Part shown: piece by piece, positions 37,361 through 61,939 of the stretch
How positions within the stretch are numbered: position 1 is the first letter of the stretch
How the letters are laid out: every line of letters starts with the position of its first letter
Assembly: GCA_963768835.1 (NCBI GenBank)
Contig: CAVYJB010000002.1
Location: forward strand, 136,230-200,229
Origin: an uncultured bacterium
Lineage (GTDB): Bacteria > Patescibacteriota > Minisyncoccia > UBA6257 > GWB1-50-10
Direction: 5' to 3'
Length of the DNA: 64,000 nt
The notes under the pieces: model-generated
The model's database searches: none
What the model was told of the DNA's origin: nothing
What the model saw: only the letters and a program-made list of their open reading frames with translations
Made by a program: the position numbers and the translations under genes

Positions 37361-37363
37361 TCG

Positions 37364-44142: not shown

Positions 44143-44214
44143 GGTGCCTATAGTGTAGCGGTAACACAGGAGTCTGTGGCACTCCTATCACGGGTTCGAA
44201 TCCCGTTAGGCACC
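44143..44214 (+). tRNA. tRNA-His (anticodon GUG) with encoded G-1
   Basis: G-1 + GTGCCTA TA GTGT AGCGGTA ACAC A GGAGT CTGTGGC ACTCC TATC ACGGG TTCGAAT CCCGT TAGGCAC C; G-1:C73 pair. Confidence 0.85.
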
Positions 44215-45168
44215 CAAGAAGGGATTTTGCGAGTAGAGAACGGCCATTTGTCTTTTCTCCATCGCATTTTCCGGAGGTTCTAACCGCTCATGAATGGCTC
44301 TGACCTCAACAGCCGCCTCTTCGATGTAGTTCAGTGGTTTTACTAGGGAAACACTAAGCTTTCCGCCCATGAGGGAGAGGTTCGAACCAAAATCCGCCAG
44401 GATTGATTTTTTCGCCTGCCAATCATCCTTAGCCTTTTCAAACTTAGTTTTCGCGTCCCTTGCGAAGCTGAGGGCCTTCTCGGCTTTCTCAAGCCATTTA
44501 TCAACATTTCGATCCGCGTCGTTCAGAATCTCCTGCAACCGCGCCTTCTCGCCGAGTAGCCGCGCTTTTTGGTCCGCGAATTCCTTTTCATCGAGCTCCT
44601 TGTTTATCCGCATCTCGAGGAGTGATTCTAGTTTACGGACAACCTTATCGTATTCTCTCCGCTGATTGGTGAGGATCGTCTCTCTGTCCGCCCTCTCGTG
44701 TTCTGTCTCACTTTTCAAAACCTCGATAGCCCAGTCGTAAAAATCCCGTGGAATCTCGATCCGTCCGAGCTCGCGGACGATTTGCGTCTCAAGCTCTTTT
44801 TCGGGAATCGGTTTTTGGGAACAGAAACCTTTTCTCTTGGTACAGCGATAGTACGTGTAGCGGTGAACATTGCCGTTTACCTGGTGTTTTACCTTCTCCT
44901 CGGCGGTCACCATACAACCGCACTCTCCGCACCGTATAAACCCCGTAAACGCGAAATTATGCGTCTTGGGGCGTGGTTTGTTGGCGTTCCCGAGTATGTA
45001 CTGGGCCTCGTCGAACTCCCCCTTGGTGAGCATTCGGTCGTGTGCCCGAGACTGTAACGGAAGGGATTGTGAGCGGAATTGTTCCTGGCCCGATTTATAA
45101 AACCAATGCGGCGATTGACCACGGCAATTCCGGCGGTATCGCCATATTAAATAAGAATGATTGTTCAC
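44206..45168 (-). pseudogene. large serine recombinase, N-terminally truncated (recombinase-domain tail + Zn-ribbon + coiled coil only)
   Basis: …LTKGEFDEAQYILG…KTHNFAFTGFIRCGECGCMVTAEEK…YTYYRCTKRK… zinc-ribbon and long coiled-coil typical of large serine recombinases; no resolvase catalytic domain; 3' end overlaps tRNA-His. Confidence 0.65.
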
Positions 45169-47866: not shown

Positions 47867-47992
47867 ATCTCGACCGAGAAGGGTTGCCTGGGTAAGGCAT
47901 AAGACCGTTCGAATATTGTCCAGTCGACGAACCTGATACCCCTGAATATTGCTGCAATCGCCTTTGCGCAGGGGCGGTAGTTCCTAACTCCA

Positions 47993-48904
47993 ATGGAAAA
48001 CGAACCCGATAGAACTCAACAACCGGCCCCGGTTAAGACCAAAAAGAAGTGGAACCGAGGGCTTGGTGGATTTATTGTGAGTGGTTTAATTTACGCGTTT
48101 GCACAGGAGAGTTTCAACAAATCAGGAGTCGACGCGGCTATTATTCTTGCTGTTGCACTTGGAGCGTGGCCGCTATACTACTTTCTCAAATCCAAGATAA
48201 GAGAAAGTGAGTGGGTAAGAATCGTTGTCGCCTTTCTTATTATTGAAATAATCGCCGGGTTCTTGATTGGATTTTCTATTCGGATGACGGATAGATTTTC
48301 GGCAACTGCTGTTGGCGCTCCGAGTTTGGCGCCGACCGCGGTTAAGAAAGATGTTAATCAAGAAAGCCCTACGGCTCCCACTGGAACCCTTAACTATGAT
48401 GCCCTTATCAACGATGCCTTGTCTAACCTACAAACAAAGCAGGGCAACCTCGAAACTGTTTTGTCCACCAGTAAATATACTTCGTATAAATACAGCGCCT
48501 TGTTGGGACAGTTAGTATTTACCGATCCCTCAACGAACGACAGGCTAACCGCCGAAGTACAGGACATAGGCGGTTTGGCGCCCGACAAGGACGGCAAGGA
48601 AACATGGATGTGGTCTTGGGCTAATGACTCCGTGCCCTCCGATATGGCGAAAGATTCTTCAGGAGTTAAGCAATTTGGCACCATTCATAATCAAGAGATA
48701 AGAAACGCGCCAACCAACAAGGCGTTATTAGGTCGCAATCCTCTAACGGAGGGGGTATTTATTTCTGACGACGTAGACGCCCTTGATCTTACCGCTGTAA
48801 CACTCTACCTAGCTGGCGGTGAAGGAATCTACAAGGTGCCGTTTACTAACGATAATGGGAATGCGGTTGAATACTTATTAATAAAAGACTTCTTGGGTCG
48901 GTAA
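47993..48904 (+). CDS. membrane hypothetical protein
   Basis: 3 N-terminal TM then extracytoplasmic domain. Confidence 0.45.
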   Translation: MENEPDRTQQPAPVKTKKKWNRGLGGFIVSGLIYAFAQESFNKSGVDAAIILAVALGAWPLYYFLKSKIRESEWVRIVVAFLIIEIIAGFLIGFSIRMTDRFSATAVGAPSLAPTAVKKDVNQESPTAPTGTLNYDALINDALSNLQTKQGNLETVLSTSKYTSYKYSALLGQLVFTDPSTNDRLTAEVQDIGGLAPDKDGKETWMWSWANDSVPSDMAKDSSGVKQFGTIHNQEIRNAPTNKALLGRNPLTEGVFISDDVDALDLTAVTLYLAGGEGIYKVPFTNDNGNAVEYLLIKDFLGR

Positions 48905-48953
48905 GAAAGAATAGACTCGATCGAAAGGAACCCCCCAGCTGTCAACGAAACTA

Positions 48954-49020
48954 TGGTGAGTGGCATGGTGGGGTACCCCTAAAAACAGGTTCTAACGTCC
49001 TCCACCAGGGGCTGTCCTAC
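48954..49020 (+). repeat. cassette-associated repeat copy R1
   Basis: …GAGTGGCATGGTGGGGTACCCCTAAAAACAGGTTCTAACGTCCTCCACCAGGGG…. Confidence 0.7.
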
Positions 49021-49037
49021 CTGGACTATTCTATTCC

Positions 49038-49922
49038 TTAGTTGGACGAGGTCACCCTAAACCCGCCAAACTCGACATCCATGAAATCGGTTCGAATACC
49101 AACGTTACCGGGAACTGAGATTGGTTTGCCTCCATATTGAATACCGTCATCGGTGGCACTCAGGACCTCCTTCCAATTGCCGGTCCTTCCGATATCAACC
49201 GACAAGACAATGGTCACGCTTCCAGTAGCATTGTTGGTGACGTTGGTCCGGAGCCCAACCGATTCTCCAATGGGCAGTAGGTTCGGATTTCTAGTGCGGT
49301 CATACGTTCCTGGGAAGATGGCACGATACGCCATGGTGTAATAGACCCCATTCGCCTTCTTCTTAATCACCGCGGCACCATCCACACGGACGCCCACGTC
49401 ATAGAGATTGTTGGCATCCTGATAGCGATTGAGAAGGAACAAACCATTCGATTGGTTGCGGTTCGGGCTCGCGCTGAAATTATTATTCTTAATCAGGAAA
49501 TAGGTCTCTGCGGTATAATTCTGCCACTTCGATTGCGATATCAACCGAAAAACATTCTGAGGATGATAGCCTTCATCGGTATCAACTGGGTTATTCTGAA
49601 AATACCTCAGTCTCCACGCATCGCTGCTCGGCAGTGAGCCCATGATGGTCGATGCCACGCCGCTGGTCGCAACATAGAAATACCCTCCTGAACTGGGCCA
49701 CCAATCCGGATTGGCGCTCTCTGTCGAGCTTCCCACCTCTTGCAGTTCTCCTTGCACGGAAAGGAAGAGATTCTGGGCGGGGGTGGATGACGCGGCTTCC
49801 ATCGCAGTTCGTTTATTACTCAGCGGATGGGACGGGGAACGCAAGATAGTTCCCACCAGAGCAATCAGGAGAAGGAAGGCGATGGTCGTGAGAAGGAAGA
49901 AAATTATCTGGTGGTGCTTCAT
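49038..49922 (-). CDS. membrane-anchored extracytoplasmic protein, ConA/LamG-like beta-sandwich (hypothetical)
   Basis: N-terminal TM; shares beta-rich repeat pattern with C-terminal domains of adjacent deacetylase. Confidence 0.45.
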   Translation of the reverse strand: MKHHQIIFFLLTTIAFLLLIALVGTILRSPSHPLSNKRTAMEAASSTPAQNLFLSVQGELQEVGSSTESANPDWWPSSGGYFYVATSGVASTIMGSLPSSDAWRLRYFQNNPVDTDEGYHPQNVFRLISQSKWQNYTAETYFLIKNNNFSASPNRNQSNGLFLLNRYQDANNLYDVGVRVDGAAVIKKKANGVYYTMAYRAIFPGTYDRTRNPNLLPIGESVGLRTNVTNNATGSVTIVLSVDIGRTGNWKEVLSATDDGIQYGGKPISVPGNVGIRTDFMDVEFGGFRVTSSN

Positions 49923-52237
49923 TATTGGTAGGTGTTCTGTACGTCCGCACTCTCTACGATAATCTTACTGTTATTTGTCGTCGGGTCCCATGTGGTGAAT
50001 CCGATGCCGCCGCTGAAGGGCGGATTCATGGTATAACCGGTCGTACTCAACACGACGTGGTTATCGAAGGAACAGATACCCTGTGTGCCCTGCACCTGGG
50101 CATAGATGGTATGCGCAGACGAGATATCCGAGACGTTGTTGTCGGCGCCTTCCGCCAAAACGTACTCGACGCCGTTAATATATTGCTCTAATGCAATACT
50201 AACGGTTCCGGGAACGCTTCGGTCGAACTCGCACCGTACGTAATTATTATCATCCTTGTACCGCGCGATTATACCGAGGGTCTGACCGCGCACCCAATCA
50301 ACCGCCGCGCTGAACTTGTAATCCGTCCAACCCCCTGAGTTTGCCAATATCACCTCAGAACCGGTGGTGGAGGCATTCGCTTCCGTGCTTAGGAACCTTT
50401 CGGAGTCTATCACCATGGTTCCCCATGTCGTTCGCCAATTTCCGTCGTTTGCGAAATCATTCTCAGTGTATGGAATCTGAAGGTTGGGAACTGGCAATTC
50501 CGGGGAAGACGGGGGAGAACTACTCGGTGCGACAGCAACGATTTCTGCTGTGGACGTCGGGCTGGGAGCCACGGCTGAACTCGTTGCCACATCCGTGCTC
50601 TGCTTACTATCCGAAACCCCGCTACTCGGCATATCGGCCGTGGCAATGGCATTAATCGGCAATGGCGCGGCGCTCAGGCTCACAATCTCCAATTTCTTGA
50701 GGGTCGATTGCGCAACTACGTTCGGGTCCCATACGCTGAAACCAGCCGCACCCCTCGATAACGTTGTGGAGACTCCGTTGGTCAACGCTTTCCCGTCGAA
50801 CGAAACGGCGACAATGCCGTTATAGACGGACATGGTAATTTCCATTTCGTCTTTTCGGGGCAACGAGTATGCCGAAGCGAGCTCCCGTTCCTTCCCGTCC
50901 ACGCACTCTACTAGTCGCAGAGATGTGTCGCCCCAGTCCAGACTGATGTAATTCTGCTCGTCAACATAACGGGCCACGATAGATGCGGAACGGCCCGTTT
51001 CCCGAGCTATGGTTGCTCGAATACTGTAATTGTCCCATCCCGAATCTCCCAATAGCACGCGAGCCGCGTTGGACCCCGCCTTGGAGAGGAGCGTGAAGCC
51101 GTTTCTTGTGTCAAGCGTGCCGTACAACAACTGAGTATTCTGAAGAAACGATGTTGAATCGCCAGAGCTTGGCAAGGTGAGGGCGGGCGGTTTCGGGGCA
51201 AAATGTTCCAATGTTCGGAGCAAATTATCCGGGCCCATGTCCTTCACCTCGAGCCGCTTTAGCTCATTGTACGGGTTGGAGTCTTTATAGTTATAAAAAC
51301 TTTCGAACGCCCCGTTGCTATCGCTCATGGCTTCGACGAACGCGAGCTTGAAATAGCGGCGCGTGAGCCCGATGTTGAAATCTTTGGCACCGTCGTAGTT
51401 AGACAGGTCCAACGCCCCGAAGTGGTTGAGCGGCACCGCAAGGTACTGGGGGTCCGTTCCCAGATGTTCTTTTATGTCCGATATGCCGTTTATATAATCC
51501 GCCTCGACTCTTTTCTGATAGCTCTTGATGCTTTCTAGGCCTACACCCGGCGTATAGATGCGCGATGTCAGATACGACCCGGTGTTCCCATCCTTGTCTA
51601 TCACAACTTTTTCATGGGAACGCCTGCCGTGCGCCTCGATTTCCCAGCGCCCCGTGGCCTGCATCTTCGCCAGCTCATCCCACCCGAGGTAGAACGGGTC
51701 GTTATTGTTGGCCCTGATGGTGGCTACGAAAAGGGTTGCCTTGAATCCCAGCTTCTTCAATACGTCGTCGACGGGGTAGAAACTGTCCTTGCGTCCATCG
51801 TCGAACGTAAGAATGATGGGCTTGGGTGGCAACGTGAACTTTCCCTCCCTGAAGAGTTCGTACTCCCCGACCGATATGGTCTCATATCCATTCTGCTTCA
51901 GCATCTCCATCTGGGCGATAAAATTCGGACGGCTAGTGTTCGGGCCCACTGGACCGTTGCTTATGATGCCGTGATACATGAGGATGGGTACGGCTTGGCC
52001 CGGAGACAGTTTGGAGGTATCTTCCACTGTGAAATTCTTCGGCGGGGAGAAAGCATAGACATACGCATGAATGCGTATCGCCTTTAGTAAGCCGCTACTG
52101 GCCGGATATAGGAGGATAACCACCGTTCCTACGAATGCCACGATAATCAATAGATAAATTGTTTTCTTGAGTGTCATGGTTATCGTGTACCCCAATGTGT
52201 CTTCCGAAGCGTCAGAAGGGCGTAGGGCATCTGCCAT
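49922..52237 (-). CDS. polysaccharide deacetylase (NodB homology domain) with two C-terminal lectin-like domains
   Basis: N-terminal TM; …PIILTFDDGRKDSFYPVDDVLKKLGFKATLFV… NodB motif 1; duplicated ~130-aa beta domains at C-terminus. Confidence 0.7.
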   Translation of the reverse strand: MADALRPSDASEDTLGYTITMTLKKTIYLLIIVAFVGTVVILLYPASSGLLKAIRIHAYVYAFSPPKNFTVEDTSKLSPGQAVPILMYHGIISNGPVGPNTSRPNFIAQMEMLKQNGYETISVGEYELFREGKFTLPPKPIILTFDDGRKDSFYPVDDVLKKLGFKATLFVATIRANNNDPFYLGWDELAKMQATGRWEIEAHGRRSHEKVVIDKDGNTGSYLTSRIYTPGVGLESIKSYQKRVEADYINGISDIKEHLGTDPQYLAVPLNHFGALDLSNYDGAKDFNIGLTRRYFKLAFVEAMSDSNGAFESFYNYKDSNPYNELKRLEVKDMGPDNLLRTLEHFAPKPPALTLPSSGDSTSFLQNTQLLYGTLDTRNGFTLLSKAGSNAARVLLGDSGWDNYSIRATIARETGRSASIVARYVDEQNYISLDWGDTSLRLVECVDGKERELASAYSLPRKDEMEITMSVYNGIVAVSFDGKALTNGVSTTLSRGAAGFSVWDPNVVAQSTLKKLEIVSLSAAPLPINAIATADMPSSGVSDSKQSTDVATSSAVAPSPTSTAEIVAVAPSSSPPSSPELPVPNLQIPYTENDFANDGNWRTTWGTMVIDSERFLSTEANASTTGSEVILANSGGWTDYKFSAAVDWVRGQTLGIIARYKDDNNYVRCEFDRSVPGTVSIALEQYINGVEYVLAEGADNNVSDISSAHTIYAQVQGTQGICSFDNHVVLSTTGYTMNPPFSGGIGFTTWDPTTNNSKIIVESADVQNTYQ

Positions 52238-53520
52238 ATGAATACAGAAACGAAGAGTAGGGAGACAATTGGCATGTACATCCAGTTCTCCGCCTTGTGA
52301 TACACGCGCACAAATAAAGCGAATACGATCCCCAGCAAAATGAAGCCGGACATGAAAACGAGGAACAGTAGTGGATTGTGGGTCCGTATGCTGTTCACGA
52401 GTACGCTACCAGCTAAGATGGGGCCGAGAATTGGGAAGCTGAAGTTGGTATAAAAGGCGAAACTTGCCAGCGGGTGCACCTTCTTCCACATAAAGAGACT
52501 CGCCATGGTCCCCTCGCGTATCCATGATTTCTTCCACCTTAATTGTTGCCGCCAATAGACAGAGAATTTCTCGGGCACTATCGTCGTGGCTTCAGCCTTC
52601 GGGCAATACACAATGTCCCACCCTTTGAGCACGAAGTTTGTCAGCCCCCGGTCATCACCGAATGTCCCCTTCGTGCCCAAGAATTTCTGCCCTTTCCACG
52701 CTTCGACGAGCGGGAGCACCGCTTTCTTCCGGTACGCAGAGAAGCAGCCTGGGCAACAGGTAACGGAACGGTGCACGCTTTCGCTGGCCTTGTAGATATT
52801 GAACGAAACCGCGTATTGAATGGATTGCATACGCGTGAGCAGGTTCGCATTCGCGTTCTCTGCTTTCGTGTTCCCGGAAACCGCGCCAATCCGTTCATTC
52901 GCCATGAAATGTTCCACAATGTGATGGATGGCATCAGGGGCAAGAAAGCTATCGGAATCAACGAAGACAATAATATCGTGGCGCGCTTCGTTCATGCCTA
53001 CCGCCATCGCCTCTCTTTTCCCCCTATTCACAGGGAATGAGATAAGTCTCACCTTTCCTCCGTAATACTGCTCGGCTCTCAGAACTTCCTTCTTGGTACC
53101 GTCGGTAGACCCATCGTCAATCACGATGCATTCGATCTCCCCGGGATATTGCGACCCGACACACGTGGCAATGGTTCGGAATATACCATCCTCTTCGTTC
53201 TTCGCGGCGATGATAACGCTCACATTGGGATAAGCAGAATCCGGATAGATTGCTGTGTGGTCATCTTTGTGCAGGTAGGCATAGGGTATACGGGAGAGCA
53301 AAAACGTCGTCGCGATAATGCCGTAAAAAGTCCAGAACGAGACAGAAAACGACATACTTGCTATGAAAATTGCTTTATAAAGTAACAGCCCGGTAATCAG
53401 GACCATGAAACATACAAAAACCAACACGGATTTTACCGAGCTCGTCAGCGACTGCGAGGTAGTGTTCGAAATAGTTCTTGATGCGTCCATTCGAGTGAGG
53501 TTTAGCCAACCACCGACCAT
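52180..53520 (-). CDS. processive family-2 glycosyltransferase (PgaC/IcaA/cellulose-synthase-like, QxxRW)
   Basis: …VIDDGSTDGT… DxD, …QQLRWKKSW… QxxRW motif, TM helices flanking. Confidence 0.75.
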   Translation of the reverse strand: MVGGWLNLTRMDASRTISNTTSQSLTSSVKSVLVFVCFMVLITGLLLYKAIFIASMSFSVSFWTFYGIIATTFLLSRIPYAYLHKDDHTAIYPDSAYPNVSVIIAAKNEEDGIFRTIATCVGSQYPGEIECIVIDDGSTDGTKKEVLRAEQYYGGKVRLISFPVNRGKREAMAVGMNEARHDIIVFVDSDSFLAPDAIHHIVEHFMANERIGAVSGNTKAENANANLLTRMQSIQYAVSFNIYKASESVHRSVTCCPGCFSAYRKKAVLPLVEAWKGQKFLGTKGTFGDDRGLTNFVLKGWDIVYCPKAEATTIVPEKFSVYWRQQLRWKKSWIREGTMASLFMWKKVHPLASFAFYTNFSFPILGPILAGSVLVNSIRTHNPLLFLVFMSGFILLGIVFALFVRVYHKAENWMYMPIVSLLFVSVFIWQMPYALLTLRKTHWGTR

Positions 53521-53647
53521 TCTTTACCCCTGGTTAAAGCGCCGTAGTTATACAACAAAATGAAAAAATAAGCAAGCGGAGACTGAGCGAACGCCGCTTG
53601 CTGGGACGATTCACGAACCCCGAGCCTGGCACCTCAGCCCGACTCTA

Positions 53648-53695
53648 CTGTCTTCTGACATCGTGTTCGTCGCATTTGACCCCTGGGGTGTCCTG
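53648..53695 (+). repeat. degenerate cassette-associated repeat copy R1b
   Basis: ACTGTCTTCTGACATCGTGTTCGTCGCATTTGACCCCTGGGG – partial match to core (cf. R10 CTCTGACATCGTACAC). Confidence 0.35.
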
Positions 53696-53712
53696 GCAGT
53701 ACTTTACTGGAG

Positions 53713-54210
53713 ATGGATGCTAGTTCGACCGCGCATCTGATTGATTTGCTTGCCAAGCCCTTCCTATCCCTGCCATCAACCATAGGAGGAGGTCTACTAT
53801 CCCTGCTATCGTCTGCTGGAGGCCTTTATTGCCAAGCCGCGAACTCGGCTGCGAAATCGATTGCGAGTTGGTTCTGGACAGCGGTGGTCGCGCTCTGGCC
53901 CTGGTACTGGGCCGGAATAGTTGCGCTTTTGGTGTCCTGGACTCTCTATGAGATATTTTCAGGGAATGGGAGGTCGGAGAATGGTTTCTCTCCGGCATAC
54001 AACCGTGTTGTAGGGAGTGGCGTTTACCTACTCATTCAATCGGCGACCTACCCCTTGCTCCTGAAAACCTTCGGAGACTTGGCCTATTGTCGGCCGTTAT
54101 CCTTGGTGATTCACTACCTAGCTTTCTTTCTTACTGGCGGCTTCCTGCATGTAATCCGTTTCTGGCCGTATTGGAGGATACCCTTCGTCGGCAAGGTGAG
54201 GTTCCATTAA
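53713..54210 (+). CDS. polytopic membrane hypothetical protein
   Basis: 4-5 TM, no motif. Confidence 0.45.
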   Translation: MDASSTAHLIDLLAKPFLSLPSTIGGGLLSLLSSAGGLYCQAANSAAKSIASWFWTAVVALWPWYWAGIVALLVSWTLYEIFSGNGRSENGFSPAYNRVVGSGVYLLIQSATYPLLLKTFGDLAYCRPLSLVIHYLAFFLTGGFLHVIRFWPYWRIPFVGKVRFH

Positions 54211-54288
54211 GACCAGTTGTTCCGGTTTGATGGTCTAGGGCCTCCAAAACGTCCGACTCGAAGTCTGGCGTGGAGGTGTAGGAGAAAA

Positions 54289-54343
54289 GCGTACCCTAAG
54301 GGGCTACCAAACAGGTTCTAACATTCTCCACTAGGGGACCCTG
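54289..54343 (+). repeat. cassette-associated repeat copy R2
   Basis: …GCGTACCCTAAGGGGCTACCAAACAGGTTCTAACATTCTCCACTAGGGGACCC. Confidence 0.8.
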
Positions 54344-54358
54344 GTTAATCGAGGTATA

Positions 54359-54811
54359 GTGGGAATAATGGAAAGAAAGACGAAGGTTGTTGTTCTGGGC
54401 ATCATCTACAACGGCGACGGGAAAATATTCCTGACTCAGCGTTATGATCCTGACATCCCCGATGCCCATCTGCGGTGGGACGTGCCCGGAGGAACTAATG
54501 AATTCGGCGAACGTCTCGAGGACACCCTAAAGCGGGAAATCGCCGAAGAGACCGGCCTGGAAGTTACCATCGGAGACCTGCTCCCGAAGTGCGTCACAAA
54601 GACCTGGGAGCACAAGGATTACCTGCAACACACCCTTGTCTTGTGCTACAAGTGCTCTCTAATAAAGGAACATCTGCACCCAAAGGATCATAAGATAGCC
54701 GCGCTGAAGTGGGAGACCTTGGAGAATCTTGCAGCTTATGACTTTCTACCGACGACCAAGGTGTTTATAGACTTGATTAATCGGCCTGTGGGCTCAGAAC
54801 ACAGGTTCTAG
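54359..54811 (+). CDS. NUDIX hydrolase (MutT-like), cassette gene
   Basis: …GGTNEFGERLEDTLKREIAEETGLEV… Nudix box; stop codon TAG lies inside repeat R3 (TCTAGC variant of TCTAAC). Confidence 0.75.
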   Translation: MGIMERKTKVVVLGIIYNGDGKIFLTQRYDPDIPDAHLRWDVPGGTNEFGERLEDTLKREIAEETGLEVTIGDLLPKCVTKTWEHKDYLQHTLVLCYKCSLIKEHLHPKDHKIAALKWETLENLAAYDFLPTTKVFIDLINRPVGSEHRF

Positions 54812-54850
54812 CGTCGTACACTAGGGGACCCAACCCCGACGGACGGGTCT
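54801..54850 (+). repeat. cassette-associated repeat copy R3
   Basis: ACAGGTTCTAGCGTCGTACACTAGGGGACCCAACCCCGACGGACGGGTCT. Confidence 0.8.
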
Positions 54851-54973
54851 CTGCACCACCACATCCCCTGGGTGGAATTGTTGTTATAGAAACGCCCGGG
54901 CTCGTATCGAACCCGGGCATATCCCGATTTTCAATCCACACAGCGGACAGAACTAGAGAGTATGTAAACGCGC

Positions 54974-55300
54974 TCACCGCCGGGGAACGCCACGAGGAGG
55001 TCGCACACAACTCCACCTTGGATTTCTCCCGCATTCGGATCTGCCCCGCACGCCCTCCATGACATACTCGATAGCCTCGTGGGGGATGACGCCGCACCCC
55101 GTCTCGATGACGATGCCCGTTTGTTTCTCAAACAACGGATCATTTCCCTTGCGGAAATGGCCATCGGTGGCATCGACGTTGAAAGGGCCGGACCATACCC
55201 CCACCCGGTCGCCAACTTCTTTGGGTTGGGTGTCTTGGTTCATGACAATCATCGCATCCACGAGTGTTCGCAGCGGGCCGTACAGATCTATTCCGCTCAT
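54974..55300 (-). CDS. hypothetical protein (reverse-oriented cassette gene)
   Basis: 108-aa ORF filling the R3-R4 interval on the minus strand; no motif. Confidence 0.4.
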   Translation of the reverse strand: MSGIDLYGPLRTLVDAMIVMNQDTQPKEVGDRVGVWSGPFNVDATDGHFRKGNDPLFEKQTGIVIETGCGVIPHEAIEYVMEGVRGRSECGRNPRWSCVRPPRGVPRR

Positions 55301-55406
55301 CTCACGCCTCCTTATTTGGATTTATGAGAACGATTCTAGCCCAAGTGTAGACCACGATGGTCCGACCTCGCAAGTGGCGGCGGGGTATCTAGGACACGGA
55401 AGAAAA

Positions 55407-55470
55407 ACAGGCTCTAACTTCGTACACTAAGGACCCCGACGAGAATTTATCTTAACCCACTAGACATAGC
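55407..55470 (+). repeat. cassette-associated repeat copy R4
   Basis: ACAGGCTCTAACTTCGTACACTAAGGACCCCGACGAGAATTTATCTTAACCC. Confidence 0.75.
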
Positions 55471-55605
55471 GGGTGATTTCCGGTTCGGCCAAGCCTTCTT
55501 GACAGAGCGGTATAAAAATATTAAACTATCCTTGCATGGGATCCTTGTCCCAATGCCTTCAGCTCTTTTACAGAAGCAACAACCATACATGGAAGGAGTC
55601 TGTCG

Positions 55606-56493
55606 ATGAGAAAAATGTCGATCCTCGTTTTCGGTTGCGCATTCGTCGTGCTCTTGAGCATAGGATGCGTACAGCAGGGCAGTTCGACGCAGGAAATACC
55701 TTCCGGACAGGAAGTAACGACTGTCGCCGGGCCAAGCGAAGGGCTCGATCTACAAGCTATCGGCGGTCTGGTAAGGCAGGCGCGTGATGCCGCTAGTCTT
55801 GAAATGCTCATCAATGATCCGGCAAGCGGTATCAACAACCTCGATCTCGACCAGGATGGCCAGATTGATTATATCTCGGTCCACGAGTACATCACGCCGA
55901 CCGAAGGTAAGGGATTCTCGCTCATTGCTAATTTGAGCAGCAACGGACAGCAGCAACACGTCGCTGATATCACCGTGGAACGTGACCCTACGACAGACCA
56001 GATCACTCTGCAGACGCAGGGAGATGCCCAGATTTACGGGCCGGATTATTACTACACTTCTCGTATGGGCTACTCCGATGCCGTATTCTACGTGTGGCTT
56101 TTCGGTTCCCATCCGCTCTACGCTTCGCCTTGGTACTACAGGCACTACCCGAGGTGGTACCGTGCACATAGGCCGGTACCCTCCATGAGGTATCAGGAAC
56201 GTATGGCAGTACGGCATACTGCTATGATGGAGCATTCGCGAACGTCGGTTGTCCGGCCCGTGACTACCGTGCCGGTACCGAGGCGGCCCGCCGAGAGGGG
56301 CACAACCCTGTTCGTGTCCCCGAAACAGAATCAGCACTCGGGTCTTCCCCAGGAACGCGTCGTATCGAAACCGGTCGGAAATGGTGGGCCCATAAGAAGC
56401 GCCAATATAGGTACAAGAAGTACCCCTGTGGCGCCGAAGCCCCCCCCGCCTCCGCATCCATCAAGCCCGTCAAGTAACACAAAGAAGAAGTGA
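55606..56493 (+). CDS. lipoprotein with Pro-rich C-terminus (hypothetical), cassette gene
   Basis: Lipobox LLSIGC; followed by hairpin terminator 56519-56560 (CCTTCGGTGCGATTTTCCACCGGAGG + TTTTTAT). Confidence 0.55.
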   Translation: MRKMSILVFGCAFVVLLSIGCVQQGSSTQEIPSGQEVTTVAGPSEGLDLQAIGGLVRQARDAASLEMLINDPASGINNLDLDQDGQIDYISVHEYITPTEGKGFSLIANLSSNGQQQHVADITVERDPTTDQITLQTQGDAQIYGPDYYYTSRMGYSDAVFYVWLFGSHPLYASPWYYRHYPRWYRAHRPVPSMRYQERMAVRHTAMMEHSRTSVVRPVTTVPVPRRPAERGTTLFVSPKQNQHSGLPQERVVSKPVGNGGPIRSANIGTRSTPVAPKPPPPPHPSSPSSNTKKK

Positions 56494-56569
56494 GTGTGGG
56501 AAAGGATTAAATTGCCTTAGGCCTTCGGTGCGATTTTCCACCGGAGGCTTTTTATTACCCAAACTATAC

Positions 56570-56630
56570 TGAGTGGACTGGTAAGGTACCCCTGGAAACA
56601 GGGCCTAGCCCCGTATTCTAGGGAACTCTG
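56570..56630 (+). repeat. cassette-associated repeat copy R5 (divergent)
   Basis: CTGAGTGGACTGGTAAGGTACCCCTGGAAACAGGGCCTAGCCCCGTATTCTAGGGAACTCTGG. Confidence 0.6.
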
Positions 56631-56890
56631 GCAAAACAATCCGCGTGCTATGCGAGTTGTTTCTTTGTAACCCCGAGAGGAAATGGAATTTCTTAGACCC
56701 GAGTTTGGGGATGATTGTGTCGAAGTACCCCACGATATTTCCTTTGGGATTTTTCCCGATCGCTCTATTGACTTTCCAGGCCCCATGTAGCAGTATGTCC
56801 GCAGCAACAGCAAAAATTTATAGAAGAAGCAACTCGATTCAGTGCGGGAGAAAAACCACTATCAATTCACTTCTATTCGCAGGAGTGCAA

Positions 56891-57454
56891 ATGAAACGCA
56901 TCCCGGTCTTACTATTCGCGTTGTGTGCCCTACTTCTCTTGTCGTTACCGGGTTGTATGGGACAGAAGGGATCAGATGGATCGGTGTATCTTCGGTACAG
57001 CTGGACCAGCTATCTGTATACCTACGACGACAATACTCCGCTCCACAACATTCAGCAGGGCGTCGATTACGAGATCAGCCCAGGAGCGTACGAATATTCG
57101 TATGAGTGTCGAGAGTACTATACGAATGGCACCTATAGCTACTGTGATGTCTGGGGAACGTTCAGTCTGGTTGCAAACGAGGGTAAAGATGGAGGCATAT
57201 TCTGGCAGAAAGGCGATGACGGCGCTCCCAAGTATTACACATTGAGCATTGGGTGGGGGGGCGCGAGTCTTGAGAAGCCGAGTGCACAGCATGCAAAACC
57301 GCCCACCGAGTTGAACGGGTTGAAAGGTAAGGATTCTCTAACGAAGATCGATCGGAGTCTTGATAACACCCTTCCGGTGCAGGTGAGGACAATCACTACC
57401 GAGGGGTGCACGATCGTGTACCGATACAGAATGCAGGAGGGAGTAGGCAAGTAA
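56891..57454 (+). CDS. lipoprotein (hypothetical), cassette gene
   Basis: MKRIPVLLFALCALLLLSLPGC lipobox; Tyr/Cys-rich mature domain. Confidence 0.55.
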   Translation: MKRIPVLLFALCALLLLSLPGCMGQKGSDGSVYLRYSWTSYLYTYDDNTPLHNIQQGVDYEISPGAYEYSYECREYYTNGTYSYCDVWGTFSLVANEGKDGGIFWQKGDDGAPKYYTLSIGWGGASLEKPSAQHAKPPTELNGLKGKDSLTKIDRSLDNTLPVQVRTITTEGCTIVYRYRMQEGVGK

Positions 57455-57551
57455 GTCCTCTAACAAAGGGGTAGGAGAAAGCTGGAGGACAACCGAGAAA
57501 GGAGTTTCGCCGTCTGTACTTAACAGGCGGCACTTTTTATTTAACGATGGA

Positions 57552-57605
57552 ACAGGTTCTAACATCCTCCACTAGGGGACCCAAACCCAACGGACGGGTT
57601 TCTCC
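57552..57605 (+). repeat. cassette-associated repeat copy R6
   Basis: ACAGGTTCTAACATCCTCCACTAGGGGACCCAAACCCAACGGACGGGTTTCTCC; followed by TTGACA-17-TATTCT promoter 57613-57641. Confidence 0.85.
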
Positions 57606-57689
57606 TGAAGATTGACAAAGTAGCACGCAAGTGCTATTCTGTTTTCAGCATCAAGAAGTAACAACCAACCCACAGAAATCTCAGGAGGG

Positions 57690-58238
57690 ATGGAAATGGA
57701 GACACCAGTCAGCTACCTGCTCACAAAAGAGATTGCCAAGCGTGCGATCGACATGGTTCGTCCGGCGATTCTCGCTGCCGTTGAAGGGAAGATTCTGAAG
57801 CGAGGCGATCTGCATATCGTTGTCATGGATCCAGTGAAGGGGCCTTGGAATGTCGAACACGAAGACGAGGCTATTCTCCACGAAGAGTCGTTCGGAGACG
57901 TGGCGAAGTGGGCCAGTCCCTACGGTGAGATTGCGCGAGCAAAGGCAATCGAATCGTGGAGAACTGGTTTCCCTACCCACGTTATTCGCGAAACGATGCC
58001 CTATTTGCTCTATGCGAACGACGATTACTCCGACACTGTGTACTGGGGGAGCGCTGTCCTCCAAGGATTGACCGTCGGGGTCAGCGGCGTGCAGTCCTGG
58101 TTCGACGAATGGGTTGCGTACATGGTCGCGGCGGCCTGCAGAGCTCTCTGCATCGAAGCGATGCAGAAACTTCTGAAAGACAAGAACCGCGACTTCGTGT
58201 GGCAGCCGGAACTGGACAGCCACAGTGGTAGCCGGTGA
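57690..58238 (+). CDS. GlcG/HbpS-like (DUF336-like) protein, cassette gene
   Basis: …LTKEIAKRAIDMVRPAILAAVEGKILKRGDLHIVVMDPVKG… resembles DUF336 N-terminal pattern; weak. Confidence 0.4.
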   Translation: MEMETPVSYLLTKEIAKRAIDMVRPAILAAVEGKILKRGDLHIVVMDPVKGPWNVEHEDEAILHEESFGDVAKWASPYGEIARAKAIESWRTGFPTHVIRETMPYLLYANDDYSDTVYWGSAVLQGLTVGVSGVQSWFDEWVAYMVAAACRALCIEAMQKLLKDKNRDFVWQPELDSHSGSR

Positions 58239-58314
58239 ATGTTTAGGACCGAGCAGACCTACCTGCTCCCGTCACAGCAATGTGGCGGTTTTTCTTTACC
58301 CCACACAGGTTCTA

Positions 58315-58365
58315 ACTTCATACACTCTAGAGGACCCTGACGAGGATTTATCTGAATCTGCTAGA
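58315..58365 (+). repeat. cassette-associated repeat copy R7
   Basis: ACAGGTTCTAACTTCATACACTCTAGAGGACCCTGACGAGGATTTATCTGAATC. Confidence 0.8.
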
Positions 58366-58453
58366 TAGGACAGGTGCTTTTCAGTTCGAACAAGAAATTG
58401 ACAGCCGAACTCTTTTCATATAAAACGAATCCAGCAATCAACTACAACAATGA

Positions 58454-58900
58454 ATGGAGGGAGCTATGGAATCCCACGGTCCGATCCAAGTCGGCATTGG
58501 GCTCGAATCGCTAAAAGTCGGTGTTTTACAGGAGATGAAAAGGACACATGCTCTGTCCGCTTGCCCACTCTGTGGAGAACCTCTTGATCCAGCCACGTGC
58601 TCGTTTTGGGAAGTGATGGATCGGCATCGTTTGCCCATGTCCGGTCAGGAAGAGCCGTCGAATCTGGATTGGGCAACGTGCGCATCATGCATGATTGTCT
58701 GGAAGCTCTTTCTTCAGAACACCAGCAACGATAATCCCGGGAATCTGAATAATTGGGAGGGCCACCAGCTGTACCTTTCCGGCTATACCAATTGTTTCTG
58801 CCGTCAGCAGGTCCTGAGAGGCTCTTGGACGCTCATTCACGACACAAAGGATCGACACTCGCACATCCGAGAGGAATGTGTGGCATCTGAACGGCGCTAG
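58454..58900 (+). CDS. Cys-rich hypothetical protein, cassette gene
   Basis: 148 aa with CPLCG…C…C..C…C.C motifs (possible Zn-binding). Confidence 0.45.
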   Translation: MEGAMESHGPIQVGIGLESLKVGVLQEMKRTHALSACPLCGEPLDPATCSFWEVMDRHRLPMSGQEEPSNLDWATCASCMIVWKLFLQNTSNDNPGNLNNWEGHQLYLSGYTNCFCRQQVLRGSWTLIHDTKDRHSHIREECVASERR

Positions 58901-58968
58901 AGCAAGAGGCGACAATTGCTAGTTCCAGGCCACCCGGTTCATCCGTGTGGCCTTTTCCTTACCCCCCC

Positions 58969-59018
58969 ACAGGTTCTAACGTCCTTCACTAGGGGGCCCA
59001 AACCCGATGGACGGGTTA
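58969..59018 (+). repeat. cassette-associated repeat copy R8
   Basis: ACAGGTTCTAACGTCCTTCACTAGGGGGCCCAAACCCGATGGACGGGTTA; preceded by hairpin terminator GGCCACCCGG…CCGTGTGGCC TTTTCC. Confidence 0.85.
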
Positions 59019-59035
59019 CGAGAATGCAACGATTC

Positions 59036-59478
59036 TCACTGAGCGGTCGTCGTGCTATTACCTGAAGGGGTGGAGCAATTCGTATAAGTTTTCACATTAT
59101 TCTCCGTGATGAACGCTGTATCGCCTGTATTCCAGAATACAATTGATTCGCCCGCATTCGCGTAGCGTCCGCCGTCGGCCGAGATCGTATGTGGCAGGGT
59201 CATGCTGCGGCCGTCGCTTAGGGTTAAGGCAACGCTGCCGCCGGGTATCGGAGGCTGGTTCGGGTTGGTCGAGGGAGTACTTGTGCCCGCATAGAACGCG
59301 GCATTAATCACTTTTCCTCCGTCGCAAGAAAATGTTGCTGTTGCGATAAGCTGACCGGTTGGTTGCCCTCCAGTGGGAGTTGATACGACCGGTGGCCGTG
59401 TTTGAGGCCGCGCAATGATTGCGACGGCAACTGCTACCATTAGAATCAAAACCACAATAAGGATATTCCTTGTCTTCA
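59036..59478 (-). CDS. membrane-anchored secreted hypothetical protein (reverse-oriented cassette gene)
   Basis: Start chosen at MKTRNILIVVLILMVAVAVAIIA signal anchor; longer ORF to 59617 would overlap R9. Confidence 0.45.
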
Positions 59479-59539
59479 TATCTTTATATATAATATCACC
59501 ATTTTCAGAGCAAGGTTCTTGCAGTAGGGTGGTGGATGA

Positions 59540-59592
59540 AAAGATTCTAACTTCGTACTCTAGGGAGCTCAAACCCGGCGGACAGCTTCTTG
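59540..59592 (+). repeat. cassette-associated repeat copy R9 (divergent)
   Basis: AAGATTCTAACTTCGTACTCTAGGGAGCTCAAACCCGGCGGACAGCTTCTTGG. Confidence 0.65.
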
Positions 59593-59673
59593 GAACCCAG
59601 TTCCTGATTGACTTCAAAGGAGGTCAGTAGTAGTTTTGGTTCAGTTCACAACACAGTTCATTAGGAGGTCCCC

Positions 59674-60099
59674 ATGGTACGAAAGGAATTGCTTGGAAGG
59701 TATTTCTTTTCCTGCCAGTGGTGCCGGTTCGACGGGAGATGTGTTCTGAAACACCACGAGGTGCTCGGCTTGCCCGCCGGTCCCGGCGTAGATGCAACCC
59801 CCCACCCTGGGCATGAGCATATTGGGTGGGCTTACTCGGCTTTTCAGGAAAATATGTCACGGGGACGTTGCACGGGTCGCGTTCTGGCGACGGAGAGCAT
59901 ATTTTTCCCCCTCCAGTGCGAATGCGGCACGGTCATCGACTCGGAGTGTGCAAAGCTCGAGCCGAATAAGCAGGGCAAGCGGCGGTTCCGGGTTGCAATG
60001 CGCCTCAAGCGGAAGAACCGCGACGGCCGTACGCTGTCGCAGGAAACGCTTGAAGAACTGAACGCGATCTGCCCGCCGGACCCGACCTATCCTAGGTAG
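59674..60099 (+). CDS. Cys-rich hypothetical protein, cassette gene
   Basis: 141 aa; CQWCRFDGRC…C.C…C… pattern. Confidence 0.45.
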   Translation: MVRKELLGRYFFSCQWCRFDGRCVLKHHEVLGLPAGPGVDATPHPGHEHIGWAYSAFQENMSRGRCTGRVLATESIFFPLQCECGTVIDSECAKLEPNKQGKRRFRVAMRLKRKNRDGRTLSQETLEELNAICPPDPTYPR

Positions 60100-60183
60100 C
60101 AGAACGCTACGCCCCATCCCTTCTCTTCGAAAGAAGGATGAGGCTTTTATTTTTGGCGCCTTTTCGTCTTACGCCTCCGCCAA

Positions 60184-60240
60184 ACAGCCTCTGACATCGT
60201 ACACTCGAGGACCTAAAATCCAGCGGGCGGGTTACCCCTC
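60184..60240 (+). repeat. cassette-associated repeat copy R10 (divergent, last in array)
   Basis: ACAGCCTCTGACATCGTACACTCGAGGACCTAAAATCCAGCGGGCGGGTTACCCCTCC. Confidence 0.6.
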
Positions 60241-60594
60241 CCGGAGTTTCCCTGCTGTATTCTTCTTAACCCGTGCCCGGACAAGCTTCTGAATGAGCGC
60301 GATGGGAAGTTTTTTGTCTAACGGAAAGTGAACAGCCGATTTCGTGGTTTTGTACGCCGCCAGTTCATTTTTATATTCCTCCACGACTGGCGGACGCAGA
60401 TAGAGCCCAATGTGTTTCTTCATGAGACCGAACCAGGCTATGCGTCCCTTGTCGTAGCCGGGCATTCCGTAACTTATGCTTTCCACGGCATCCGGTGCGA
60501 CTTCTCTTATTGCTGCCCTCATCGCTTTAAGCTTGCCGCGCGTTTCTTTCCGAGCTCTCGCGATGTAAGCATCCACATCCCTGTATTTTTTCAT
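60232..60594 (-). CDS. DUF1801 (YdhG-like) family protein, reverse-oriented cassette gene
   Basis: …VDAYIARA…KLKAMRAAIREVAPDAVESISYGMPGY… typical DUF1801. Confidence 0.6.
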   Translation of the reverse strand: MKKYRDVDAYIARARKETRGKLKAMRAAIREVAPDAVESISYGMPGYDKGRIAWFGLMKKHIGLYLRPPVVEEYKNELAAYKTTKSAVHFPLDKKLPIALIQKLVRARVKKNTAGKLREG

Positions 60595-60767
60595 CCCCTT
60601 ATCATATCAAAAAGGAGCTCGCGAAAGGTTATTAGACCATCGCTTATAGGATTGGTCCTTAATAAAAAAACCAGACTCTTTATGTGGTCTGGTTATTTCT
60701 CGAGAAGTAAATACATCGGTGAGCCGATGACTACCCCCCCTTATTTATAAAGCGCCGTTCTACATCA

Positions 60768-60875
60768 TCATTTAGACGATGAATTCGCGCGCCCGTCCCA
60801 TATCAGCTCGATCAGACGAATGGCCGCGTAAGTCGCGACCGCCGTCAGGACCGCTTCACCGATGCGTACGAACAT
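60768..60875 (-). CDS. candidate 35-aa hydrophobic small protein
   Basis: Manual: GGAGG-6 nt-ATG TTC GTA CGC… MFVRIGEAVLTAVATYAAIRLIELIWDGRANSSSK*; below ORF-track cutoff. Confidence 0.3.
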   Translation of the reverse strand: MFVRIGEAVLTAVATYAAIRLIELIWDGRANSSSK

Positions 60876-61339
60876 GGAAACCTCCGTTGATGTTGATTCT
60901 CGTGGATGATCTGTTGTTCTGGATAGGCACCACGATATGCCCCTTCAGTCATTGCTAAACCAATTCAATCTTTCCGCCCCGGTCGGCCAGTTCGGCGCTC
61001 AAATTCCGCTTTCGGGAGCCAGCGTCCAGAGCGCTTCTTTTCAGAAACAGCTTCCTCGATGTACTGTCTACGCGCCCGCTCCTGATACTGAAGACCGCTC
61101 TCGCCACGCTTGCGTGTGTTGGCGAGATGACCAATTTTGCCCATATCACTCCTCCTATATGTGGTTATTAACTATACACTGCTAATCGGAGCATAGTGTT
61201 CTGAACGACACCTGTCAACGGGAGCAACGTACGCCCCTTTAGTGGTGGGATAACTCCAAAGTTCCATCGGCGGATTTCGTTGCCTTAAGGGGTTTTAGTG
61301 CTTTCTGCCGAGGAACCAATCGGGGGGTATAATTAAGAC

Positions 61340-61915
61340 ATGAATACCCCCTTCTTTACAGGGCGTGGCGATGGCGGGGAGAGCGCATACGGAGACCGGC
61401 GCCTGCGGAAGGACGATGCCCTCTTTGCGCTGCTCGGCGACCTTGACGAGTTGAACTCATGGATTGGTTTCTGTCGCGCGAAAGCTTCGGAGCTTGCGCC
61501 GAAAAAAGGAGCCGGAGTTCCCATTCTGGATTCCTTGGGGGACATTCAGGATACGCTTTTTACCGTGCAGGCAGAGGTCGCGGAAGTGGGGTTCGGATAC
61601 ACTTCCCGCGAACCGAAGCGCGTCACGCCCGCGCATACCCGGGCGCTTGAACAGACCATCGAGGCGATCGACTTGAAGCTGCCGCGTCTTTCCGCATTCG
61701 TTCTCCCTGGGGGCTCAGAACTCGCGGCCCGGCTGGATCTTGCGAGAACCGTTGCGCGTCGCATGGAGCGGGCCGCCGTCGCTTTCTCAGCGAAACACCC
61801 CCTTTCCGCAGAGCTTCTTAAATTTCTGAACCGTCTCTCGAGCACTCTCTTTGCGCTGGCGCGATACGCGAATCACTGTGCAGGAGTCGCCGAGAGTCAC
61901 CCGAAATATCAGTGA
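61340..61915 (+). CDS. ATP:cob(I)alamin adenosyltransferase, PduO-type
   Basis: N-terminal …TGRGDGGESAYGDRRLRKDDALFALLGDLDELNSWIG… PduO/MMAB family. Confidence 0.75.
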   Translation: MNTPFFTGRGDGGESAYGDRRLRKDDALFALLGDLDELNSWIGFCRAKASELAPKKGAGVPILDSLGDIQDTLFTVQAEVAEVGFGYTSREPKRVTPAHTRALEQTIEAIDLKLPRLSAFVLPGGSELAARLDLARTVARRMERAAVAFSAKHPLSAELLKFLNRLSSTLFALARYANHCAGVAESHPKYQ

Positions 61916-61939
61916 AAGCCAGGATGGTATACTGGGAAC

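Follow-up and report, generated by a model that had tools for sequence, protein, structure and literature searches.

In integron arrays, and in the clusters of attC sites lacking integron-integrases (CALINs) in which the adjacent integrase is missing, homogeneous repeats of one orientation are separated by small, heterogeneous and often ORFan genes, usually one per interval and some of them reversed; open reading frames (ORFs) can end within the repeated site, and the sites recur across taxa with differing cargo. In staphylococcal cassette chromosome (SCC) islands such as SCCmec, anchored at rlmH and dependent on large serine recombinases, and in tRNA-targeted islands, both of them composites that arise by serial site-specific integration, direct repeats part heterogeneous segments downstream of, and co-oriented with, the anchor gene, and the recombinase could act in trans. 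In the pdif modules of Acinetobacter plasmids (XerC/D) and in the integrative mobile elements exploiting Xer (IMEX) at dif, short sites of 28 bp bound unrelated small modules, and the host recombinase is encoded elsewhere. In the tiny genomes of Patescibacteria, also referred to as the candidate phyla radiation (CPR), few mobile elements are known, and how accessory genes are acquired and varied there is poorly understood. The present analysis concerns a window of 64,000 nucleotides from an uncultured bacterium of this phylum (contig CAVYJB010000002.1), in which a repeat motif of 28-32 bases, AACAGGTTCTAACRTCGTCCACTAGGGG, is present in nine strong copies and one degenerate copy, named R1 to R10, that span positions 48984-60210 and separate mostly small genes.

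These motif copies may be the recombination junctions of an attC-independent cassette array located in a tRNA-His-associated island, a reading to which a probability of roughly 0.35, about one in three, is assigned. If correct, it would account for the polarity of the array, the occupancy of every gap, the association of a conserved site with unrelated cargo, the sharp 5' edge of the motif and the island location. The anatomy of the array, the phylum-wide occurrence of the site beside non-conserved cargo, the lineage-specific nature of the island and the absence of attC structure are established.

Detection and orientation of the motif copies

A position weight matrix (PWM) trained solely on 57 motif instances from outside the window identified nine sites within it at 15.8-45.6 bits, as compared with a maximum of 9.6 bits in the shuffled window. 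A pattern search returned exact or near-exact copies where the chance expectation was 0, and a repeat finder independently recovered the same family. All ten copies are found on the plus strand, and the remaining 52.7 kb of the window, scanned with the PWM on both strands, contained no copy. The degenerate copy, R5 (56597), scored just 7.8 bits and was accepted because its 3' extension fits a metagenomic subfamily and its 5' flank fits that of R1. Additionally, the array is not an assembly artefact, since a separate Logan assembly of run ERR11594402 was 100% identical across 54338-62215, breaking inside R2.

An initial annotation of the window had proposed an eleven-copy repeat family, with every copy on the plus strand regardless of gene orientation, and a further weak copy. 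The strand claim was borne out by the PWM scan, and the family proved to be real, but in the smaller number given above: the copy proposed at 53648 (R1b) is a non-significant 12-nt half match (TTCTGACATCGT), and the weak copy at 47975-47995 is likewise non-significant, the best PWM score nearby being 4.7. R1, R2 and R5 do exist, but the starts assigned to them (48954, 54289 and 56570) take in upstream flank that does not belong to the motif.

Organization of the array

From R2 to R10, each interval between successive copies (490-1191 bp) was found to carry a single transcription unit, three of these units being reversed. The initial annotation had described this arrangement, and separate gene calls on the Logan contig agreed with one unit per interval, while its three reversed ORFs, the stop codon of the NUDIX gene within R3 (the TAG of R3), a TTGACA-17-TATTCT promoter (found at 57612) and two subfamilies of 3' extension were all recovered. 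The R1-R2 interval holds instead a reverse three-gene polysaccharide operon and one plus-strand gene. According to Pfam, the cargo of the window comprises a NUDIX protein, an MliC-domain protein (59036-59617) and a DUF1801 protein, the remainder having no hits; of the earlier functional labels, NUDIX and DUF1801 were thus retained, but the "DUF336-like" assignment found no Pfam match, and the MliC domain is new.

Three types of 3' extension follow the motif. The 52-nt type is carried by R3, R6 and R8 and, in weaker form, by R9 and R10; a type of ~110 nt, which includes a promoter, is shared by R4 and R7; and a 77-nt type with a terminator-like hairpin is found at R5, as well as in the metagenome loci L009, L019 and L028. 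The strongest intrinsic terminators in the region precede R5, R6 and R7 by 15-45 nt, and sigma70-like promoters are located downstream of R4 and R6. Therefore, the usual order is terminator, motif, extension where there is one, promoter and ORF.

The upstream flanks of R1 and R5 were observed to be alike over ~36 nt (48948-48983 and 56561-56596; AAACTATRSTGAGTGG..TGGTRRGGTACCCCTRRA). Within this shared flank, GCATGGTG..GGG..GTACCCC resembles the 77-nt subfamily's tail with a deletion, which suggests that the flank is a remnant of a tandem, tail-to-head arrangement.

Occurrence of the motif across Patescibacteria

When one genome per species was scanned for the exact pattern, matches were obtained in four metagenome-assembled genomes (MAGs) of Patescibacteria, including Colwellbacteria, Yanofskybacteria and Saccharibacteria, and a metagenome scan with the motif matched 16 contigs. 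A scan of viral contigs gave 0 matches, a search of phage and plasmid collections gave none, and a literature search with the motif strings, and with integron or attC in combination with Patescibacteria or CPR, returned nothing relevant. After the matched loci and later ones had been rescanned, 76 non-redundant motif instances were available. The conserved block extends from position -1 to about +31, an A followed by AAYAGGTTCTAACRTCGTCCACTAGGGG(GAGC); it is sharply delimited on its 5' side and fades out on its 3' side, and families of similar copies extend in the 3' direction only, to set lengths of 52, 77 and ~87 nt.

In 28 of 28 loci that hold copies (approximately 14 of them independent), all copies of a locus lie on one strand. 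Neighbouring genes are co-directional with the motif in ~60% of cases, and the downstream gene in 40 of 63. The copies occupy tandem, divergent and convergent gaps, and the motif stands between two gene 3' ends at R1, at R8 and in at least six further cases; upstream ORFs repeatedly terminate at the motif's own TAA or TAG, much as ORFs do at attC inverse cores. In loci of the Parcubacteria type, doublets are frequent: an A-type copy is followed by a B-type copy at a fixed pitch of 55 bp, and the 27-nt spacer that separates the two is conserved from genome to genome. An extended -10 promoter (TGnTATAAT) is found at a fixed distance 3' of the B-type copies, and reversed genes often begin 10-25 nt from the 5' edge of the A-type copies. 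Across organisms, the similarity between arrays is limited to the motif or doublet and the promoter modules, where it amounts to 85-93% and spans no more than 120 nt; the genes are unrelated. The cargo consists of small, heterogeneous accessory genes, including NUDIX (four arrays), Ham1, PgpA, DAGK, PAP2, TspO, Band7, amidase, MliC and DUF1801.

Some intervals outside the window hold something other than a protein-coding gene. In locus L018, two cargo-like tRNA genes stand between motif copies (1292-1363 and 1585-1659; a tRNA-Leu(CAG) and a tRNA called as Phe with anticodon AAA). In the Yanofskybacteria array, the motif-bounded intervals at L012 95-1075 (equal to L004 735-1715) and 3430-3977 are relatively GC-rich and have no convincing ORF on either strand; they may represent non-coding RNAs or decayed genes, and Rfam gave no match on them. 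An indel between L004 and L014/L017 was rejected, as it corresponds to a scaffold gap of Ns.

Genomic context of the array

In the window, tRNA-His and the gene for a PduO-type cob(I)alamin adenosyltransferase are separated by 17.1 kb, as opposed to ~2 kb in relatives. Homologues of this PduO-type protein bear the names Minisyncoccia, Paceibacterota, Jorgensenbacteria or Patescibacteria, which places the window in Patescibacteria. Two relatives, whose PduO proteins are 52-56% identical, keep the order Pterin-4a dehydratase ... tRNA-His, two genes, PduO, MgtC, and a scan of their 20-kb windows detected no motif. Therefore, the array belongs to a lineage-specific island that occupies a variable slot beside the tRNA gene. 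The initial annotation had pointed to syntenic loci in relatives as a source of evidence for cassette turnover: the island and the motif are absent there, but no cassette gain, loss or excision was demonstrated. The extra DNA of the window begins at the 3' end of tRNA-His with a serine recombinase remnant, whose sole Pfam hit is PF13408 (Zn_ribbon_recom) at residues 74-134; Pfam also supported the earlier statement that this truncated gene is the only recombinase in the window. Arrays adjoin tRNA genes and are co-oriented with them in all five loci with visible tRNAs.

Two derivations of the motif from tRNA were considered and rejected. As a copy of a tRNA 3' end, left by serial tRNA-targeted integration, its best alignment scored 11, which is the 95th percentile of a null of shuffled motifs, and no repeat of the tRNA-His 3' end (attR) was found at the right border of the island. 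As a pseudo-tRNA 3' end, it offers a T-loop-like GGTTCTAAC and an acceptor-like ...GGAGC, but the alignment scores fell within the shuffled null, and ARAGORN detected no tRNA-like gene at the motifs.

The promoter module of the B-type copies (GAGCTCGTTAATAGGTTTCTGGTATAGT) was also observed 3' of a genuine tRNA-Asn (…CCCCGGAGC) at L004 3449-3489 on the minus strand, the tRNA itself being located at 3485-3557. This module is 95% identical to that of the Colwellbacteria MAG, the tRNA end stands where the motif would be, and motif variants ending in ...CCCGGAGC resemble the end of this tRNA-Asn. To the right of the island, a 198-aa ORF without a Pfam hit (61940-62536, plus strand) lies between PduO and MgtC, which are adjacent in three relatives (L022, L024 and L026); it corresponds to a second small lineage-specific insertion, without a motif copy.

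Absence of attC structure and of an integrase

The initial annotation had likened the array to a sedentary chromosomal integron. An integron-like layout is supported by the island location, by the motif bounding different genes elsewhere and by a polarity that belongs to the array rather than to the genes, but every test of membership at the sequence level was negative. The motif contains an R''-like TTCTAAC without an R' partner or a palindrome, in agreement with the earlier remark that the repeat is not a canonical attC. Likewise, Pfam searches on essentially all ORFs of the window revealed no tyrosine recombinase or transposase, as had been stated for intI. The attC-like hairpins sought by folding the bottom strand were not found, since no window copy forms a hairpin on either strand; the fold z-scores of these copies as DNA are ~0, and RNAalifold applied to 66 single instances gave an empty consensus on both strands. 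The conservation lies in the linear sequence and not in structure. The flanks, in which an intI or other recombinase had also been anticipated, yielded none by Pfam at L002/L005, L004, L007, L012 and L019; the five flanks examined include FtsA-FtsZ-RNR (L002/L005), a restriction-modification system (L007) and GATase/tRNA-Asn (L004). When the array is set against the organization of integrons, in which each site goes with one, mostly promoterless, cassette ORF, the copies are co-oriented and each interval has one unit, but the units have their own promoters and terminators, and the site is placed 5' of the unit.

Table 1. Positions of the motif copies and associated features. Coordinates refer to the window unless a locus is named.
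Feature	Coordinates	Strand	Evidence and context
R1 motif	48984..49011	+	PWM 41.7 bits; repeat families D1 and D4; gap between convergent genes
R2 motif	54310..54337	+	PWM 45.6 bits; NUDIX gene 54359-54811 next
R3 motif with 52-nt-type extension (ACCCAACCCCGACGGACGGGTCTCT)	54800..54852	+	NUDIX stop 54809-54811 inside; next gene 54974-55300 reversed
R4 motif with ~110-nt extension common to R7	55406..55527	+	promoter TTGACA-17-TAAACT at 55499; then gene 55606-56493
R5 degenerate motif with terminator-like hairpin extension, 77-nt subfamily	56597..56673	+	terminator before it, 56519-56550
R6 motif with 52-nt-type extension	57551..57603	+	terminator 57509-57531 upstream; promoter 57612-57640 downstream; then gene 57690-58238
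R7 motif with 2-nt insertion, R4-type extension	58304..58333	+	terminator 58269-58288 upstream; then gene 58454-58900
R8 motif with 52-nt-type extension	58968..59020	+	between convergent genes; MliC-domain gene 59036-59311/59617 reversed
R9 motif, diverged	59539..59591	+	then gene 59674-60099
R10 motif, diverged, last copy	60183..60210	+	DUF1801 gene 60232-60594 reversed
tRNA-His, left edge of the lineage-specific island	44144..44215	+	ARAGORN, Rfam; co-oriented with all copies
Large serine recombinase remnant, 5'-truncated	44206..45168	-	Zn-ribbon and coiled-coil kept, catalytic resolvase domain lost
Reverse three-gene operon	49038..53520	-	Pfam: unknown protein, polysaccharide deacetylase, GT2 chitin-synthase-like protein
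PduO-type cob(I)alamin adenosyltransferase, first conserved core gene right of the island	61340..61915	+	Pfam; homologues; synteny
Basic-protein genes near the motif	L001 7285-7407; L002 2671-2793; L028 10001-10135; L039 10001-10111		70-115 nt downstream of a copy

A proposed cassette array without attC

In the scheme proposed here, a unit would be composed of the 28-32-bp motif with the 3' extension of its subfamily, in which a promoter is often present, of one transcription unit and, usually, of an intrinsic terminator, and units would be gained and lost through recombination between motif copies. Two routes may be envisaged for such recombination. It could be catalysed by a site-specific recombinase encoded in trans, elsewhere in the genome, or it could result from RecA-mediated exchange after natural transformation, in which case the motif or doublet would serve as a portable homology anchor. 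Both routes keep the orientation of the site, and thus either of them would explain why the polarity is that of the array rather than that of the genes. Approximately 25 reversed genes are found within arrays in which no copy is flipped, and this, together with the copies between convergent 3' ends, argues against a promoter or operator acting gene by gene; the polarity favours an array-building process with an intrinsic polarity. A broader proposal, put forward somewhat more tentatively than the junction reading itself, is that of a hitherto undescribed attC-free cassette system of CPR bacteria, in which self-contained mini-genes (promoter, ORF and terminator) would be captured, shuffled and exchanged across phylum-level lineages at a conserved but unstructured double-stranded site of 28-32 bp, frequently in the form of the 55-bp doublet. 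Served by a recombinase in trans, or by transformation followed by homologous recombination, such a system would possibly be an independently evolved analogue of the integron in naturally competent ultra-small epibionts.

Several observations weigh against recombination at the motif. Pfam detected no functional recombinase in the window or at about five array boundaries, and the motif has none of the dyad symmetry typical of the core sites of tyrosine and serine recombinases. The 14 doublets were less structured than their shuffles (mean fold z-scores of +1.1 and +1.2). In look-ups, the exact cassette proteins were found in sample ERR11594402 only, in the same context, and no presence/absence polymorphism of cassettes, no circular junction and no shared cassette with motif-delimited breakpoints was demonstrated. 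Single motif copies occur in core-gene contexts (L003, L010 and L039) and sparse ones in L036, and in four lineages the gene of a protein of about 40 aa has the motif just upstream, as would be expected of a cis-regulatory element. Because of these single core copies and of this recurrence at one small gene, regulatory readings stay alive. Finally, at 13 of the 14 loci counted as independent, the motif points in the direction of positive GC skew; therefore, a polarity linked to replication or to bulk transcription represents an alternative source of the co-orientation.

Alternative explanations

The first alternative, which we regard as unlikely yet worth serious consideration, is that the motif is a cis-regulatory DNA element that precedes the sigma70 promoter belonging to each gene. 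As an operator, as an activator site or as a promoter for an alternative sigma factor of the sigmaB/SigF class (GGTT..A-N13-14-GGG.A), it would mark a regulon made up of small genes for stress or house-cleaning. The resemblance is to what we take to be the sigmaB/SigF consensus. Many copies are followed, after 20-120 nt, by a co-directional gene whose promoter is sigma70-like or of the extended -10 type, the B-type copies keep their fixed distance from TGnTATAAT, and the motif is contiguous, unstructured and asymmetric, like DNA recognised by a protein; an extracytoplasmic function (ECF)-type sigma factor is encoded in the window at 37809-38378. However, the gene that a copy faces is reversed in ~37% of cases, several copies have a gene 3' end on both sides, none is flipped to match a reversed gene, and the distance from motif to promoter or start spans 16 to >200 nt, so that the fixed orientation and distance of a sigma promoter were not found. 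Nor is conservation limited to promoter boxes: all 28-32 positions are conserved, the putative spacer between -35 and -10 is nearly invariant, and it is the putative -10 (GGGG) that is substituted in variants such as CGACCCGGAGC and GTCCCTCGGAGC.

The recurrence of the same gene families beside the motif can be read in both directions. NUDIX genes recur in four arrays, and the small protein whose gene follows the motif in four independent lineages is a highly basic one of 36-44 aa (MAKRDKGIVNYKK...; MAKRDKGIVNYKKSHSHKTKKRLEIKRLMLEAKAKKRR..) that belongs to an unannotated, widespread and strongly conserved family of Patescibacteria (206 hits, 68-93% identity); in L039, the motif upstream of its gene is the sole copy in 20 kb. 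These recurrences are expected of a regulon, but other genomes carry the basic-protein gene without any motif, genomes with the same small gene and like neighbours lack it, and the copies are confined to one island cluster.

Rather more doubtful is a polar interspersed repeat that colonised the gaps of an existing accessory region, either similar to repetitive extragenic palindromic (REP) sequences, miniature inverted-repeat transposable elements (MITEs) or neisserial intergenic mosaic elements (NIMEs), or itself a polar chromosomal sequence with a function. The direction of replication would determine how it is oriented, for example through insertion into single-stranded DNA, or else a strand-specific function, such as that of a roadblock or insulator, would do so. 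The agreement with GC skew is what such a repeat predicts, although the locus family F3 (L004/L012) has the opposite skew. The discrete length classes (52, 77 and ~87 nt), each of which has a defined 3' end, the sparse or single copies of L036, L039 and L003, and the terminators on both sides of the 77-nt type, as though it were shielded from transcription, are also consistent with it. On the other hand, terminal inverted repeats, hairpins and target-site duplications are absent, and no transposase of the Y1, HUH or REP-associated tyrosine transposase (RAYT) type was detected by Pfam among the window ORFs. The distribution is also not that of a dispersed repeat: 10 copies crowd into 11.3 kb and fill almost every gap of the array, whereas the remaining 52.7 kb of the window contain 0, as do ~110 kb drawn from relatives and further Patescibacteria loci. 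REP sequences and bacterial interspersed mosaic elements (BIMEs), in particular, are not indicated, as the motif has no hairpin, one orientation only and no copy in the window outside the array.

An element acting at the RNA level has a low probability. The motif would then be a processing or punctuation signal, the 5' module of a small RNA or a promoter of a single-subunit RNA polymerase, with transcripts from the plus or the minus strand. The 77-nt subfamily, consisting of motif and terminator hairpin, resembles a tiny self-contained transcription unit, and CACTA-GGGGGAG is weakly similar to what we presume to be the form of T7-class promoters; no single-subunit RNA polymerase gene, however, was found among the window ORFs. 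A bottom-strand stem of 5 bp (positions 0-4 with 18-22) is present in 84% of cells and fits both the A-type (G-U) and the B-type (A-U) copies, but its pairing of 83.9% is to be compared with a column-shuffle expectation of 83.1%, and the covariation is marginal (25/500). Moreover, RNAalifold found no consensus structure on either strand, with fold z-scores ~0 or positive, Rfam 15 yielded nothing at gathering thresholds and nothing beyond noise when E was relaxed to 10 (window array, L013 and L018), and the strong terminators directly upstream of copies oppose a long array transcript.

A canonical integron array or CALIN with merely divergent attC sites is by far the least probable alternative: the layout of co-oriented repeats with one small gene each and some reversed ORFs is in its favour, as are stop codons in a TAAC-containing box like the R'' inverse core, but the reading is already contradicted by the fold, partner-box and intI tests, given that neither an R' partner (GTTAGAA) nor an imperfect palindrome exists, that 66 single copies and 14 doublets are unfolded on both strands, that conservation is linear and not structural, that the window has no intI and that the units carry their conserved block 5' rather than 3'.

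Two further classes were considered and rejected. A CRISPR array does not fit, as the spacings of 490-5300 bp contain genes and the doublets have a single conserved 27-nt "spacer"; dif and pdif sites do not fit either, since the consensus shows no arm symmetry in any 11-6-11 register and the copies never alternate. Short likenesses to 23S rRNA near the I-CreI site and to Ter sites, the P1 C1 operator, boxA and DnaA boxes are presumably coincidental.

Other observations in the window

The ECF-type sigma factor (Sigma70_r2/r4_2) is the first gene of a minus-strand group at 36320-38378, followed by a putative anti-sigma factor and a Thr/Ser-rich secreted protein, beside a tRNA-Gly. DUF5667 proteins were found near tRNAs at an analogous position in L003 and L004, and the gene for the L003 protein has a motif copy 200 nt upstream. 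At 21315-24860 (plus strand), an isoleucyl-tRNA synthetase-like protein of 1181 aa contains a complete His_Phos_1 domain (residues 503-666) within the class I catalytic domain, which is unusual. The tRNA genes of the window (2612, 29143, 38447, 40333, 40485 and 44144) almost all lack an encoded 3' CCA, and a tmRNA gene at 18364-18673 specifies the tag ANKTAVPALAYA.

Significance and comparison with known systems

A phylum-wide junction motif that orders small accessory genes into polar arrays represents a searchable handle on gene acquisition in CPR bacteria: a scan for it over thousands of MAGs could map variable loci, and profiling could find a partner protein. As a regulatory site, the motif would be the first conserved regulon-type signal for the phylum; as a recombination site, it might become a gene-insertion tool for CPR bacteria. 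Both outcomes would be new, given that neither Rfam nor the phage and plasmid collections nor the literature that could be searched contain the motif.

In its organization, the array is closest to integron arrays and CALINs, then to SCC-type composite islands and then to pdif modules, and it has the defining sequence features of none of the three. It shares with integrons and CALINs the layout set out at the beginning. However, their site is an imperfect palindrome of 55-140 nt with R''/R' and L''/L' boxes and extrahelical bases, whereas here it is an unstructured, asymmetric sequence of 28-32 bp; the conserved block is 5' in a unit with its own promoter and terminator, doublets in Parcubacteria are direct repeats of 55 bp, and no IntI was found in the window or in five array flanks. 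With SCC-like and tRNA islands, the array has in common its position relative to the anchor gene, here tRNA-His, and the large-serine-recombinase remnant at this anchor. In contrast, its units measure 0.5-1.2 kb, and its repeat does not reproduce the 3' end of the local tRNA but stands unchanged beside different tRNAs, or none, in different genomes. The pdif and dif sites, similar in length and in bounding unrelated modules, are 11-6-11 sequences with partly palindromic arms and alternate in orientation, whereas the motif is asymmetric and never alternates.

Among other short sequences, REP/BIME, Correia, NIME/dRS3 and enterobacterial repetitive intergenic consensus (ERIC) elements are likewise conserved, extragenic, often near terminators or promoters and divided into length subfamilies, but their units are palindromes or carry inverted ends and are dispersed genome-wide in either orientation, while the motif is unstructured, of one orientation and clustered. 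Promoters of the sigmaB/SigF and T7 classes are, like the motif, contiguous and strand-specific, and its place upstream of sigma70 promoters is as in tandem stress promoters; here, however, the spacer does not vary, variants have another sequence in place of the -10-like part, and 37% of the copies point into reversed genes. Should the motif prove to be a recombination site, it would represent a second, structurally unrelated solution to the problem that integrons solve.

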